Source of the DNA: an uncultured Gammaproteobacteria bacterium
GTDB taxonomy: Bacteria; Patescibacteriota; Microgenomatia; UBA12405
Length of the DNA: 45,642 bases
Direction: 5' to 3'
Assembly (NCBI GenBank): GCA_964544275.1
Contig: CAZIZX010000001.1
Span: forward strand, 1 to 45,642
Part shown: positions 1 through 33,233 of the stretch, in pieces
How the letters are laid out: each line of letters starts with the position of its first letter
How positions within the stretch are numbered: the stretch's first letter is position 1
Notes under the pieces: model-generated
Databases searched by the model: none
What the model was told of the DNA's origin: nothing
Seen by the model: only the letters and a program-made list of their open reading frames with translations
Position numbers and translations under genes: made by a program

Positions 1-163
1 TTGTCGGCAATTTGTAATAGTCGGGTAAGAATCGATATTGATCTTCTACAACCTTCGCTCTTTTCTCGCTCTTACAAACGTAGTATAATTAAATACTTGA
101 ATTGCCCTTTTCCTTAATCTAAAATCTTAACTCGTCGCTCATTGACAAAAAATTTGCCAAACG

Positions 164-619
164 AAAGCAAAGAGTCTTAAGGTGTGAAACCTCTTTAAAA
201 ATGCAAAGAGTTTTTTCACATTTTAACCATCTCTTTGCTTTTGGTGGTTGTTTTTTGGGACCCAATCGAAATAAAATTTTCAGTTTTATTTTGTCTGGGT
301 CCCAAAAAAAGTGAAACAACTATACCCAAAGCCCCACATTTTAAATTCGCCTGGGGGAGTCTTCGGGACGAACTTTGTCCAAGAAGACAAGGCGCGGGAG
401 TCAACCGGAGAGGGCTTGCTGAGACAGCATGCCGGTTTGACTCCCGGGGGACCACTTCAGAAAGCATATACGGGGGCTCGCCTGGAAATCAGACAACGTT
501 GTCGATTGACACGTGAGCCCCAACCCCCTTTTCCGACTTTTCCTCTTTCGCCCACCCCCCTCCTTTTCTCCTTTTTCAAATTTTTTCTACCCCACTCTTT
601 CTCTCAACCACCAAAAGCA
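164..619 (+). ncRNA. candidate structured non-coding RNA / leader of unknown family
   Basis: Hairpins 164-241 (aaagcaaagag/ctctttgcttt), 251-309 (14-bp ttttttgggaccca/tgggtcccaaaaaa), 359-388, 395-446 (10-bp cgggagtcaa/ttgactcccg) and 473-521. Perfect 15-bp IR at 236-250/605-619. G.U wobbles fall on the + strand. ORFs over it are not credible proteins. Confidence 0.5.
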
Positions 620-663
620 TTCCATCTTCTAATATTTTTATATCTTTCCATTTACTTAACTAT

Positions 664-2205: not shown

Positions 2206-3597
2206 TTATACACCCTGCTTTAAAGTCATAAAACAAAACAGGCAGAAAAATCCAATTTCCGCCAACATCATGCCTACTCTCAAGGCCGATGGTCGCAATT
2301 TTCTATCCAAATTTGTCAAATTAAGATACAAAACCGCCGCAGAATAAATCAACATAGATACTGCGTTCAGTGCCGCTCCAATTACCACCAGCCTCAACGG
2401 TTGTTCAAACCCAATAGCCACAATTCCAACACCCAAAGCAATCAGAACCCACAAAAAAACATAATAATAAATAGCCAAATTCTTAATTTTAAATCTTTTC
2501 TGATCCATAATTACCAGGTTTTCAGACATAATTCTTGAGGTGGCATCCATCACCGAAAGTTGAGTAGAAAAGAGCATCAAGCTGGAAAGCACTAGGAAAA
2601 TAATTCCAAAAAAAGGTAGGGTCCTGATACCAATTATTTTCGCTTCTTCGAACAAAAATCCAATTCCCTCCACCCCTCCGGTATTCAAGTGGACAGTCGA
2701 AAACGACAGCAAGCTCAAAAGCATTATTGTTATCGCTCCAGTCACCCAAAACACTAACGCGTGTTCTTGGTTAATGATCCTCCACCAGTCATTAAACCTT
2801 TTTAGGTTCTCTCTGGTCAAGGAAAAGGTCTTCCCCGTCAAAGTCATATGCTCTTTCTTTCCGGTCAATATGCTTGTTATTTTGCCTCCATATTTACCCA
2901 TGCCGTAACCCTTCTCTTTGATATAAAAAGATTGCGCCAAATTCAAATTTCCTCCTGCCCCAGAATAGGCAAAAGCCCCCAAAAAGCCCAAAAGCGACAT
3001 GCCTTCAGGGAAAAACCAATAACCATCACCTCGACCTATTATTCCCCAAGCTAAACTTTGCCAATCATTGAAGTCAGCCAATATCACAGCCAGCAAGAAA
3101 ATTATGGGCACTCCGATTAATATTAAGTTTCTTTGAAACCACTCCTGCGTTTTGTAAATTACCGGGCCCAAAGTCAAAATAACGCCAATCAACAATAGTA
3201 ACAATATCGCCAATACTTTACTGTCTAACCCTCCGAAAGTAGTTACCAATATCACCGCACAGGATAAAATTATTCCCGGCCACATCCACGGTATTAGAGT
3301 CGATAAAATAAACCAAATAGGGGACAAACGGCCAAACTTCCTAGATAATCCAACAAAAATACTTTCCCCTTTAATTAGAGTATATCTTTCAATTTCCATA
3401 TTAAGAAAAAATTGAAAACTTATCCCCAAAACCGCCCCCCAGATAATTCCCAGACCATAATTGGCGCTCATGTAAGGCCACAAAATCAGTTCTCCACTGC
3501 CCAAACCCAAACCCAGCAAAATAAAACTGGGCCCCAGAATATTTTTAAGTTTAAGTGCCTTTGGCATTTTTGCCCTGCCGACCCTTGCTAGTTTCAT
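2206..3597 (-). CDS. Nramp-family (YcsG-like) divalent metal transporter
   Basis: GPSFILLGLGLGSGELILWP N-terminal motif, ~11 TM segments, 463 aa. Confidence 0.75.
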   Translation of the reverse strand: MKLARVGRAKMPKALKLKNILGPSFILLGLGLGSGELILWPYMSANYGLGIIWGAVLGISFQFFLNMEIERYTLIKGESIFVGLSRKFGRLSPIWFILSTLIPWMWPGIILSCAVILVTTFGGLDSKVLAILLLLLIGVILTLGPVIYKTQEWFQRNLILIGVPIIFLLAVILADFNDWQSLAWGIIGRGDGYWFFPEGMSLLGFLGAFAYSGAGGNLNLAQSFYIKEKGYGMGKYGGKITSILTGKKEHMTLTGKTFSLTRENLKRFNDWWRIINQEHALVFWVTGAITIMLLSLLSFSTVHLNTGGVEGIGFLFEEAKIIGIRTLPFFGIIFLVLSSLMLFSTQLSVMDATSRIMSENLVIMDQKRFKIKNLAIYYYVFLWVLIALGVGIVAIGFEQPLRLVVIGAALNAVSMLIYSAAVLYLNLTNLDRKLRPSALRVGMMLAEIGFFCLFCFMTLKQGV

Positions 3598-19510: not shown

Positions 19511-20725
19511 ATGTTTACACTCAAAAACCTTTTTTTCCTCCCCGCCATAATTTTTCTATCCTCTTTTCTTCTATCAGCTCACCCGCAGGCTCAATCAGGT
19601 AATTCCGGTCAATGTCAAAATGGGGAAGTCAAAAAAATTGAAAACCCTCCCTTTAACGCTCACACCTCCTGCCTTATTACCAGACTTGGAATAAAAGCCG
19701 GAAGTCAGGCTAGTGGTCATGGTTGTACTTACTATTCGTCAAATACTAATGACGGCTGTTACAAAGTTGAAGGTATCGGCACCAATCAGGCCTCCGCCAG
19801 TCGTGTTGGACACGGTAAATTTTGCCCAGAAATTTCTCATATTAAAGTTTATTGTGACCCGATCAACACTCCCACCCCAACCGTCACCCCAACACCCACC
19901 ACTAAACCTGCCAAACCTCCCACCCCCACTAAAAAACCTCATCCAACTAAAATTCCCAAACCCACTCACACCCCTAAACCCACCAAACCCCCCTGCGCCA
20001 CACCAACTCAGATCTCCACTCCAACCAGTACTCCCACTTCGGTTCCGACTCCCACCTCCACTCAGATACCAACAGTAACCCCCACCCCAACCAATCCACC
20101 AGCTCCTACTTCTACCCCCACCCCCCAGCCTCACTCTGATCCCACCGCCACTCCTACACCTCTACCCACATCTAGCCCCGCACCGGTTGGTGGCTACAAC
20201 CCCACCGTTGTTCAAGTTTTGGGTTCTACCGACAACTACAATCCTTTAATCGACGCCATCAAGAAATCACTTATTGGCCAGGTTTTAGGTGAAAATAATT
20301 TAGCTGGCACCAGTGATCCAAAAGCTTCAAACGAAAAATTACCTTCTTCCAATCTTCTGACCCCAAAAACGATAACAATTCCTCAGATTAATTTTTCTCA
20401 ACCCATATATCAATCAGATCGAATTGGCGACGAATTACTCGTTGGCCACAATGAAGTTTTAGAAGCGGATTTAAATGGACTAAAACTTATTTATGGTCAC
20501 AATAGCCCTCAAGTTTTTGCCAACCTCTATCAGCTAAATTTAGGCCAAAGTATAACCATAGATACAGGAGATCTGACCAGCGAATACCAGATTGTCTCCA
20601 AACACTTTGTTCATGAGTCCAAAAGTAACTTTTTCGAATCTGTTAGTTCCGACAATATCGTTTTGATGACCTGTTCTTATACTCAACCTGATTACCGACA
20701 CATAATAATTGCCAGCAAAATCTAA
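19511..20725 (+). CDS. sortase-domain protein with signal peptide, Cys-rich N-domain and Pro/Thr stalk
   Basis: C-terminal IYGHN..VFANLYQLNLGQSI...YQIV...IVLMTC....YRHII: His/Cys/Arg sortase triad in canonical order. Confidence 0.8.
   Translation: MFTLKNLFFLPAIIFLSSFLLSAHPQAQSGNSGQCQNGEVKKIENPPFNAHTSCLITRLGIKAGSQASGHGCTYYSSNTNDGCYKVEGIGTNQASASRVGHGKFCPEISHIKVYCDPINTPTPTVTPTPTTKPAKPPTPTKKPHPTKIPKPTHTPKPTKPPCATPTQISTPTSTPTSVPTPTSTQIPTVTPTPTNPPAPTSTPTPQPHSDPTATPTPLPTSSPAPVGGYNPTVVQVLGSTDNYNPLIDAIKKSLIGQVLGENNLAGTSDPKASNEKLPSSNLLTPKTITIPQINFSQPIYQSDRIGDELLVGHNEVLEADLNGLKLIYGHNSPQVFANLYQLNLGQSITIDTGDLTSEYQIVSKHFVHESKSNFFESVSSDNIVLMTCSYTQPDYRHIIIASKI
19860..20200 (+). repeat. Pro/Thr-rich low-complexity linker (TPTPT-type repeats)
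   Basis: Translated PINTPTPTVTPTPTTKPAKPPTPTKKP...TPTPLPTSSP; boundaries approximate. Confidence 0.85.
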
Positions 20726-23537: not shown

Positions 23538-23625
23538 GACCCAGAAAAACAACACCAAAAATATCATAGCACATCTTCAAACTGTAGTCTTTTATTGCCC
23601 CAAACCCTTTGCTATCGTAGTAGAA

Positions 23626-23880
23626 ATGATTGAAAACAAATTCCTGATTCCGGTTACTCCCCAAGAACTTGAAGCCTGGACAAAATTCGAAGCAGCTTTA
23701 TCCGACCCGATTGCTCATGAGTCCCGTTACCGGGGTGTAGTTGGTGAAGCCAATTATATTCCCAATCCCAGGCTCAGGCTCGATTACCAAAACCAGAATG
23801 TTGTACAATTAATCAATGCGCCTCCAACTCTACGACCGCGGCAGCCCGCAAGGCAAAAAGTTGCTCAACCAGTTGGATGA
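23626..23880 (+). CDS. hypothetical protein
   Basis: Fills the gap after folD; overlaps the next ORF by 65 nt; no family recognised. Confidence 0.4.
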   Translation: MIENKFLIPVTPQELEAWTKFEAALSDPIAHESRYRGVVGEANYIPNPRLRLDYQNQNVVQLINAPPTLRPRQPARQKVAQPVG

Positions 23881-24055
23881 ATTATGCCAGCGCCTCCAGC
23901 TTGATTGTGCCCCCGAACCGGTTACCGACATGAGTCGCGTTTACTCTATGGGTGTTCAGGGCAAAACCATCTTGGTAATTAATAGCGAGGTGGTTTTGGT
24001 CGACCGCTTCCCCAGTCTAAAAGAACTTGAAGATATTTTAAACGACTATCGCTAA
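23816..24055 (+). CDS. small thioredoxin-fold protein (Thioredoxin_3/MTH895-like) lacking CxxC
   Basis: Aligns by eye to M.I.V.G.GCP.C..L......VTD...I...GV..TP.LVI..EV....R.PS..E..E.L, with GSPQG at the CxxC site. Confidence 0.6.
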   Translation: MRLQLYDRGSPQGKKLLNQLDELCQRLQLDCAPEPVTDMSRVYSMGVQGKTILVINSEVVLVDRFPSLKELEDILNDYR

Positions 24056-31952: not shown

Positions 31953-33233
31953 ATGTTTGTTAAGAAATATCTTTACGCCTTTTTAACCATTGTTTTTATT
32001 TCACTATCTCTAGTTGGAACCCTATATCTAGTCCAAAGAAATCAGGACATTCGCGATCATGCTGCCGGGGAAAACCAGTTGGTTTGCATGCCAATTGATG
32101 ATAGCGGCAACATAACTGCTGAAAAGTATCGATATAATCGAATAAAAGTTACCAACAACACCGGTGGTAATGTAATTATCTGGATCCAGGAAAACCTATG
32201 TGATTACAAAGGGACCATGCCTTCCGCCGGATATCGTTGCGATAATTACCACCGTCGTTACAACGATACTGTCGGCCCCGGTCAATCAAAAATTTACTCT
32301 ATGGATGTTCCTTGCGGGAAAATTGGTCAACTTGATATTGCCCAGGACGATGCCCAAATGGGCACTTATGTTCCGGATTGTTACAACACCACCGATCAAC
32401 AAATTTGGAGCGGAGGCATATCTTTCACCATCAAAGCCGATACCCGCACCAACTGTTGCCCTCAGGTAAACTTAAGTGTCCTCCCCTCTCAAGTGTCACC
32501 CGGAGGCAAAGTGACTTTTGATGCCTCCAGTTCACAACCCCTTGTTTGTGTCGAAATGCAATCAGTAAACGGAACCACCGGCAGTCTCTCTCCGACTAGG
32601 ATAGAAGGAGGTCATTGGAAATGGGACGCCACCGCCATATCTACTCCCGGGAAATATACGGTCACCTTTAGAGGCAACACAAAAGACAGTGGAGTTGGCG
32701 ACTGCCCCAGTCGGGCCATCGGCGATTGGTGCCCCGCCCAGGCGACTTTTGACATTCAACCTGCCACTACCAACACCCCCACCCCTACCGCCACCAAAAC
32801 TCCAACTCCGACAGCCACTAAAACTCCGACTCCCACTGCTACCAAGACACCGACCCCAACTGCCACTCGGGTTCCCACCAACACCCCCAGTCCCACCGCC
32901 ACCAACACTCCACCCCCCGGAGCTACTCTCACATCCACCCCCATCGCCACCAACACCCTCACCCCTACCGCTACTAACACTCCAGCCCCTACTAATACTC
33001 CACCTCCCGGAGCCACCTTAACTCCCACTCCTCTGGCTACCAATACTCCAGTACCCACTCCTGTCATCGCCGAAAGCACGCCCGTTCCTCCTACAGGTAC
33101 TCCAGTTTACGTTGCCCAAGTGCCAAGCCCGACCACGGTTATTTTGCCCCAAGCCGGAGTTAATTTCCCTCTTCAGTTATTAGCTGTTGTTGGTACAATT
33201 ATCACCCTTTTTGGGTTTTTGATATTATTGTAA
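31953..33233 (+). CDS. surface protein: N-terminal TM, Cys-rich domain, Pro/Thr stalk, LPQAG + TM C-terminus
   Basis: VQRNQDIRDHAAG after TM; many Cys; tandem TPTPTATK; ILPQAGVNFPLQLLAVVGTIITLFGFLILL. Confidence 0.8.
   Translation: MFVKKYLYAFLTIVFISLSLVGTLYLVQRNQDIRDHAAGENQLVCMPIDDSGNITAEKYRYNRIKVTNNTGGNVIIWIQENLCDYKGTMPSAGYRCDNYHRRYNDTVGPGQSKIYSMDVPCGKIGQLDIAQDDAQMGTYVPDCYNTTDQQIWSGGISFTIKADTRTNCCPQVNLSVLPSQVSPGGKVTFDASSSQPLVCVEMQSVNGTTGSLSPTRIEGGHWKWDATAISTPGKYTVTFRGNTKDSGVGDCPSRAIGDWCPAQATFDIQPATTNTPTPTATKTPTPTATKTPTPTATKTPTPTATRVPTNTPSPTATNTPPPGATLTSTPIATNTLTPTATNTPAPTNTPPPGATLTPTPLATNTPVPTPVIAESTPVPPTGTPVYVAQVPSPTTVILPQAGVNFPLQLLAVVGTIITLFGFLILL
32770..33060 (+). repeat. tandem Pro/Thr repeats (TPTPTATK-type x3-4; TNTPPPGATLT(S/P)TP(I/L)ATNT x2)
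   Basis: Seen directly in the translation; the DNA is synonymously diverged; boundaries approximate. Confidence 0.85.

Follow-up and report, generated by a model that had tools for sequence, protein, structure and literature searches.

In the precursors of rRNA and of the scRNA of B. subtilis, the 5' and 3' flanks pair with each other and form substrates for RNase III. We know of few structured RNAs that are specific to CPR bacteria, which cannot be cultured alone, and a literature search on structured RNAs and leaderless usage in CPR bacteria found nothing specific. The element described here lies near the start of the window, by which we mean the whole 45,642-nt stretch of DNA that was analysed, and shares one feature with RNase III-type stalks, namely flanks that pair around a structured RNA and whose pairing is kept by covariation. 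Comparison with homologous loci indicates that it is a real, conserved and folded non-coding RNA outside the known RNA families, present in five lineages so far. Our preferred reading, to which we commit only tentatively, is that a structured non-coding RNA, with its own promoter and a paired-flank stalk that would process or clamp its ends, lies beside a leaderless exonuclease gene.

The gene downstream of the element (664-1272, + strand) encodes an RNase H-like (PolB-exonuclease-like) protein of 202 aa (PF13482, E = 1.9e-08), with 1295 homologues that, where named, belong to Shapirobacteria, Woesebacteria or Patescibacteria. Relatives of the locus were found by exact-protein look-up of exonuclease homologues, and 12 genomic contexts were examined. 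Four further lineages (L002, L121, L123 and L131) have a non-coding gap of ~600-690 bp 5' of the exonuclease gene, and in these, as in the window, the element is directly upstream of that gene, while the gene 5' of the element varies between lineages, being ChaB, IMS or a methyltransferase. The exonuclease protein is 80% identical to that of the window in L002, 73% in L121 and 70% in L123; L007 has the same sequence as L002 (99.9%), L003 is a partial copy, and L124 and L132 are the same sequences as L123 and L131, respectively. The element is absent upstream of the exonuclease gene in seven relatives (L004, L005, L122, L125-127, L128, L129 and L130), where the upstream gap is 5-116 bp.

Searches of larger collections added little to these loci. 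One exact 19-mer matched 11 times among 185,579 GTDB species genomes, 10 of the matches arising by chance in unrelated phyla and the eleventh being L007. One exact 18-mer gave 104 matches in JGI metagenomes, all by chance, several of them in a conserved coding region, apparently that of a membrane transporter. Two patterns gave 1 chance match in viral contigs, and blastn against phage and plasmid collections gave no match. Given the seven element-free loci, and exact-word scans without a true match beyond L007, the element is rare and patchy. It could well be vertically inherited and narrowly distributed in Microgenomates-like CPR lineages, a judgement made jointly with that on the preferred reading. 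L007 (CAZFAI010000038.1, 7.3 kb) belongs to a MAG labelled 'uncultured Gammaproteobacteria' and is 99.9% identical over 7.17 kb to L002; it is probably mis-binned, its L002 counterpart being Microgenomates-like, with the element and the exonuclease gene within the match. Several Logan contigs, assembled from short reads of independent samples, break off within the element (L001, L003, L124 and L132), with L001 starting at window position 457, L003 at L002:3858, and L124 and L132 in the 5' hairpin H1, described below, of L123 and L131. For the last two, the likely cause of the break is a pair of co-occurring strains that are identical from H1 through the adjacent arm to hairpin H2. In the element-free relative L128, ~500 bp without a called gene (998-1506) lie ~1 kb 5' of the exonuclease gene, and the H1 model found no match there.

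The preliminary description had placed a perfect 15-bp long-range helix around the element, and this pairing was borne out, since tgcttttggtggttg (236-250, + strand) is the exact reverse complement of caaccaccaaaagca (605-619, + strand). When positions 1-663 were shuffled with dinucleotide composition preserved, a perfect inverted repeat of at least 15 nt was obtained in 0 of 2000 shuffles, the longest having 14. The core of the 5' arm is 242-250, its remaining part (236-241) being shared with the 3' strand of H1, and that of the 3' arm is 605-613, with a pair probability of at least 0.94 in the window model. In the full-length models of all five lineages, arm-arm pair probabilities were mostly at least 0.9, falling to 0.55-0.75 for a few terminal pairs of L002 and L131. 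In an alignment of the 5' domain and the 3' arm from the five lineages (A4), three of the nine core long-range pairs are compensatory, and in L121 the helix has a C-G pair in place of U-A. The arms of L123 and L131, AGCGGUCGGAU / AUCCGAUCGCU, have a sequence entirely different from that of the window's arms, with pairing kept as a 13-bp run, a length reached in only 2 of 3000 shuffles; those of L123 contain one G.U (G-T) position. Between the end of the 3' arm and the ATG at 664 there are 44 nt, close to the 45 nt given earlier. Also as described, the segment 164-174 has an alternative pairing there; its partner is 231-241, which overlaps the 5' arm by 6 nt.

That alternative pairing is the outermost stem of H1, a three-part 5' hairpin (164-241, + strand) with stems at 164-174/231-241, 177-189/214-226 and 191-196/205-210 in the predicted folds. 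Across the five lineages, 80-100% of cells are paired in each H1 helix and double-sided changes occur at 7 pairs, and a covariance model (R1) scored H1 at 86-102 bits in all five loci. A covariance-model search of 124 kb, comprising the window and related loci, found no further copies of H1 with the 5' arm. Directly 3' of the 5' arm is H2, a near-perfect hairpin of 26 bp (251-309, + strand; 88% complementary), bordered 5' by U6 and 3' by A7. Compensatory changes in H2 are found in L002 and L121, at 252/308, 262/298, 267/293 and 269/291, and its counterpart in L123 and L131 is a 20-bp hairpin in which a single A-U to G-C exchange separates the two. The possibility that a boxA-like CUCUUUG on the 3' strand of H1 signals antitermination was dropped, because the motif is not kept in L123 and L131.

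Taken in + strand order, the frame common to the five lineages consists of promoter-like motifs, H1, the 5' arm, H2 and a variable interior, followed by a last GC-rich hairpin, a G-poor tract, the 3' arm, ~45 G-poor nt and the ATG. In alignment A4, 93% of the cells pair, and double-sided changes occur at 10 pairs, compared with 0-3 in slid controls, in which the pairing partner was shifted by 1-3 columns; the covariation score is 0.32, compared with 0.05-0.15 in these controls. As the five sequences fall into two close groups with partly shared ancestry, this covariation is good qualitative evidence and no statistical proof. Of the identities proposed in the preliminary description, a divergent housekeeping RNA, a new CPR RNA or a switch, the one to emerge is a new structured CPR RNA, to which the homologues in five lineages and their compensatory base changes point; the other two were not supported, as set out below.

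The GC-rich core of the element was confirmed in the window and differs between lineages. Hairpins 251-309, 359-388, 395-446 and 473-521, all previously described, are present in the minimum-free-energy folds, the last three forming a GC-rich cargo domain (353-527, + strand) with an optional closure of GGGGG (353-357) on CCCCC (523-527), and the palindrome gacaacgttgtc is confirmed at 492-503. The core (340-535) has a folding energy of -86.8 kcal/mol (z = -4.9 relative to shuffles) and 57-62% GC, as against 40% in the window, so that the description of it as GC-rich was correct. It is preceded by a G-poor linker (310-352, + strand) that is mostly unpaired in predicted folds, and followed by a C/U-rich, nearly G-free tract (522-604, + strand) in which GC skew falls to -0.95; the G-poor zone is uninterrupted over 516-675. 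The counterparts of this tract are rich in C and U in L002 and L121, and in A and C in L123 and L131. The whole + strand of the window (1-45642) has a strongly and persistently negative GC skew, and it contains 18 tracts of at least 80 nt with three or fewer G and 0 such tracts with three or fewer C, so that G-poor tracts are common here. The most GC-rich of the window's G-poor stretches (19857-20127 and 32671-33020) encode Pro/Thr repeat linkers (PTPTPT...), one within a sortase-domain protein and the other within a 426-aa protein without a Pfam match. The window's second largest intergenic gap (23538-24051; 514 bp, 46% GC) is not an RNA candidate and holds overlapping + strand ORFs (23626-23880 and 23816-24055), which look like either one small frameshift-split gene or two short genes.

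In the window, L002 and L121 elements the interior holds three GC-rich hairpins (z = -4.9, -4.9 and -6.9, respectively), and the interior sequences are barely alignable; their cargo hairpins could not be aligned together with MAFFT/RNAalifold, L121 being too diverged. Pairing in the lower stem of hairpin 395-446 is kept in L002 through three double changes. The interiors of L123 and L131 are AT-rich and weakly structured (z = -1.8 and -0.4), with one strong hairpin after them. The window, L002 and L121 elements share no conserved ORF, and local ORFs have no Pfam match. Inside the L123 and L131 elements (2707-2823 and 2724-2834, respectively) is a + strand ORF of 36-38 codons with a Shine-Dalgarno sequence, which starts and stops at matching positions in the two lineages, differs by a 6-nt in-frame indel, and is conserved only in its first 11 residues (M..ATDSP). 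The ORF is doubtful; it could encode a true micro-protein or instead represent an RNA motif. Because the interior differs between the two types, interest moves from the GC-rich core to the frame. Together with the preferred reading, and as provisionally, we regard the frame as the conserved working part of the element, which the GC-rich core is not, and the interior as exchangeable cargo.

This divergence also bears on the suggestion of a switch. The duplication of gggagtc, at 355 and 396 with a single gactccc partner, is present in the window, but the mutually exclusive folds that had been proposed from it find no counterpart elsewhere, since the duplication is not kept in L002 or L121 and no alternative pairing is conserved. 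Neither a core sequence conserved between lineages nor conserved exclusive pairings, the marks of a riboswitch or other RNA switch, were found. The ccccc-tttt that follows the core had been pointed out as well; as a terminator it was negative in a terminator scan, which detected 0 terminator-like sites of the intrinsic terminator or attenuator kind in positions 1-800 of the window and 3300-4100 of L002.

The earlier failure to match the element to a known family was repeated in database searches, with Rfam, tRNA and tmRNA searches all negative. The Rfam 15 covariance models at gathering scores gave 0 matches over the whole window, and the relaxed search (E <= 10) returned only microRNA, snoRNA and sRNA noise of the hairpin type at 155-354 and nothing in the 350-521 core; on L121, L124, L132 and L007, nothing relevant was returned. 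The families unmatched include RNase P, tmRNA, SRP, 6S, T-box, riboswitches, OLE, ROOL, GOLLD, HEARO and raiA, and ARAGORN did not find a tRNA or tmRNA. A retron RNA, whose a1/a2 flanking inverted repeats have a likeness in the 15-bp arms, was rejected because no RVT domain is present among the 43 window ORFs or in the Pfam lists of the neighbour genes in L002, L121, L123 and L131. A MITE or insertion sequence was rejected because the flanks (...catctctt / ttccatct...) are not direct repeats and the element is single-copy in the window, and a mobile element in general because the site is fixed in all lineages, without target duplication or a phage or plasmid match.

Sites that could drive transcription of the element lie upstream of H1. 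A TATAAT hexamer (84-89, + strand), the candidate -10 of a distal promoter, is within a 22-nt block, cgtagtataattaaatacttga, to which L002 is identical and L121 matches at 19 of 22 positions in the alignment; a two-hexamer promoter scan missed this hexamer owing to its weak -35. A further promoter-like sequence, TTGAAT-17-TAAAAT (97-125, + strand; implied start ~132), is found at the same place in L002 and L121. L123 and L131 have instead an extended -10, TGTTACAAT, ~30 nt 5' of H1. Since there is no terminator 3' of the 3' arm, the transcript probably runs on into the exonuclease promoter region.

The spacer between the 3' arm and the gene (620-663, + strand) is G-free, lacks a Shine-Dalgarno sequence and is likely to hold a proximal promoter of the exonuclease gene. 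L002 and L121 show this promoter more clearly (TTGAAT/TTGTAA-17-TATCAT, 8 nt 5' of the ATG), and it is clear in L123 and L131 too (TGNTATNCT); the window's gene has a weak proximal -10, and none that is clear. In the relatives, the exonuclease homologues likewise have no Shine-Dalgarno sequence and, as is seen across the window, have -10-like hexamers 7-12 nt before the ATG. Only ~5 of 41 window genes have a Shine-Dalgarno-like motif (the starts examined include 2206-3597, 3669, 5641, 17151, 21930, 22695 and 39881), and in many a TAnnnT hexamer begins 10-15 nt 5' of the start codon. From the rarity of the one and the frequency of the other, and from the same pattern in the exonuclease homologues, leaderless mRNAs appear to be the rule in the window genome. 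The exonuclease gene, judged by these motifs, appears to be expressed as a leaderless mRNA from its proximal promoter, like most genes here.

According to our preferred reading, the element would be a + strand RNA of ~480-530 nt, corresponding roughly to window positions 130-620 and transcribed from its own promoter. The long-range helix, of 9-15 bp, would abut H1 and close the remainder of the RNA, with H1 stacked on the outer end of the helix, H2 as the first element inside the closed loop, and a G-poor unstructured tract preceding the 3' arm. The paired flanks, together with H1 and H2, may provide double-stranded sites of the RNase III type, and the resulting processing stalk may define or clamp the ends of the upstream RNA and separate it from transcription into the exonuclease promoter and gene. 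The pairing of the arms is supported by the alignments and the folding models; the RNase III processing step is pure inference. Against a stalk stand the shortness of the helix (9-15 bp) and the divergence of the cargo, which is unusual for a functional stable RNA.

The same arrangement could also be read as a long 5' leader that regulates the exonuclease gene in cis, where the distal promoter produces a long-leader isoform and the helix ~45 nt before the start codon controls read-through, interference with the proximal promoter and/or stability, and although we think this rather unlikely, several features fit it. The element is always directly upstream of the exonuclease gene and in the same orientation, though its 5' neighbour differs; the stretch from the 3' arm to the ATG has no terminator, and the G-poor zone is continuous over 516-675. 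The window's gene also lacks a good proximal -10, and, since none is clear, it may depend on read-through from the element, which favours a leader. On the other hand, most relatives seem to express the exonuclease gene without the element, as judged from their sequences, and, in this seemingly leaderless genome, translation from an internal AUG that has no Shine-Dalgarno sequence would be poor. A proximal promoter-like site is kept in L002, L121, L123 and L131, and a leader that acts as a switch is opposed by the lack of a conserved alternative pairing.

It is less probable still that the arms act at the level of DNA, either as the ends of an invertible segment, in the manner of fimS- or hin-type phase switches, or as two copies of a protein-binding site. 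As in invertons, inverted repeats flank a segment 5' of a gene, here a perfect 15-bp repeat around 354 bp directly 5' of the exonuclease gene, and the covariation of the arms between lineages would also be expected of recombinase or operator sites. The 3' arm is just 5' of the -35 of the proximal promoter, and the internal hairpin of L123 would become a strong terminator if inverted. Other features speak for RNA: the arm abuts H1 and H2 exactly, the covariation of H1 and H2 fits RNA folding, and the arms of L123 include a G.U (G-T) position. In addition, all five lineages were assembled in one orientation, and no recombinase, invertase, transposase or reverse transcriptase gene is present among the 43 window ORFs or beside the other element loci, the other scanned window ORFs of at least 100 aa being ordinary chromosomal genes.

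Transcription of the same structured RNA from the minus strand, divergently from the exonuclease gene, is about as improbable. The preliminary description had taken G.U pairs in the stems as a sign of a + strand RNA, an argument that fails because the two strands are nearly alike in folding energy, in number of pairs and in G.U count; in the conserved helices, A.C cells are about as many as G.U cells. There is also a weak promoter-like site on the minus strand (607-580). However, the best conserved promoter-like motifs are those upstream on the + strand, it is the + strand that carries the short ORF of L123 and L131 with its Shine-Dalgarno sequence, and the G-poor composition is that of the sense strand of the window's + strand genes. 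With these motifs, this ORF, the sense-like composition and an orientation relative to the exonuclease gene that is the same in all five lineages, we favour a + strand transcript. Finally, a highly divergent housekeeping RNA (RNase P, tmRNA, SRP or 6S), to which the lack of these RNAs in the annotation of the 45.6-kb window and the GC-rich, multi-hairpin core might lend some colour, is very improbable given the seven related loci without the element, exact-word scans with no true match beyond L007, an unconserved cargo and no core match in Rfam at E <= 10, and equally so are functionless chance or degenerate repeats, which the shuffle tests and compensatory changes exclude.

A further and more speculative reading is that the conserved frame constitutes a new modular CPR RNA cassette, which would present or excise an interchangeable cargo and, through the 3' arm next to the promoter, couple it to expression of the leaderless nuclease gene. 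Under this unlikely proposal, the cargo would be a GC-rich structured RNA in some lineages and a short mRNA in others. An RNA of ~500 nt in which the long-range helix covaries, the frame is conserved and the interior can be replaced would be a new candidate motif among large non-coding RNAs, and it would offer a handle on how non-coding RNAs are transcribed beside promoters in genomes with seemingly leaderless mRNAs; its practical weight is limited, as it comes from only five uncultured lineages.

Compared with described systems, the element has a mixture of familiar and unfamiliar properties. In retron msr-msd, too, flanking inverted repeats (a1/a2) close a structured non-coding RNA that has a long hairpin inside, but here no reverse transcriptase is encoded in the window or next to the homologues, and the span is much larger. 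With fimS, hin and the Bacteroides invertons it shares short perfect inverted repeats around a few hundred bp 5' of a gene; unlike them, it has no recombinase nearby, one assembled orientation in all lineages, and covariation of the RNA type in the interior and flanks. OLE, ROOL, GOLLD, HEARO and raiA resemble it in being several hundred nt long, with many hairpins, GC-rich relative to the genome and discovered by comparison, whereas their Rfam models do not match here, conservation is limited to the frame, and the element is much more narrowly distributed. The RNase III-processed leaders of rpsO-pnp and rnc also have long duplexes 5' of a nuclease gene, and leader autoregulation is conceivable here as well, but the gene is of the PolB-exonuclease-like RNase H fold and seemingly leaderless, and most of its homologues are without the element. 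The processing stalks of rRNA and scRNA have in common with it a long-range pairing of flanks, adjoining leader hairpins, a dedicated promoter upstream and compensatory changes; they differ in that the RNA enclosed here is no known stable RNA and is unconserved, the helix is 9-15 bp, and cleavage is putative. By analogy with these systems, the element would work most like a processing stalk or a structured leader.
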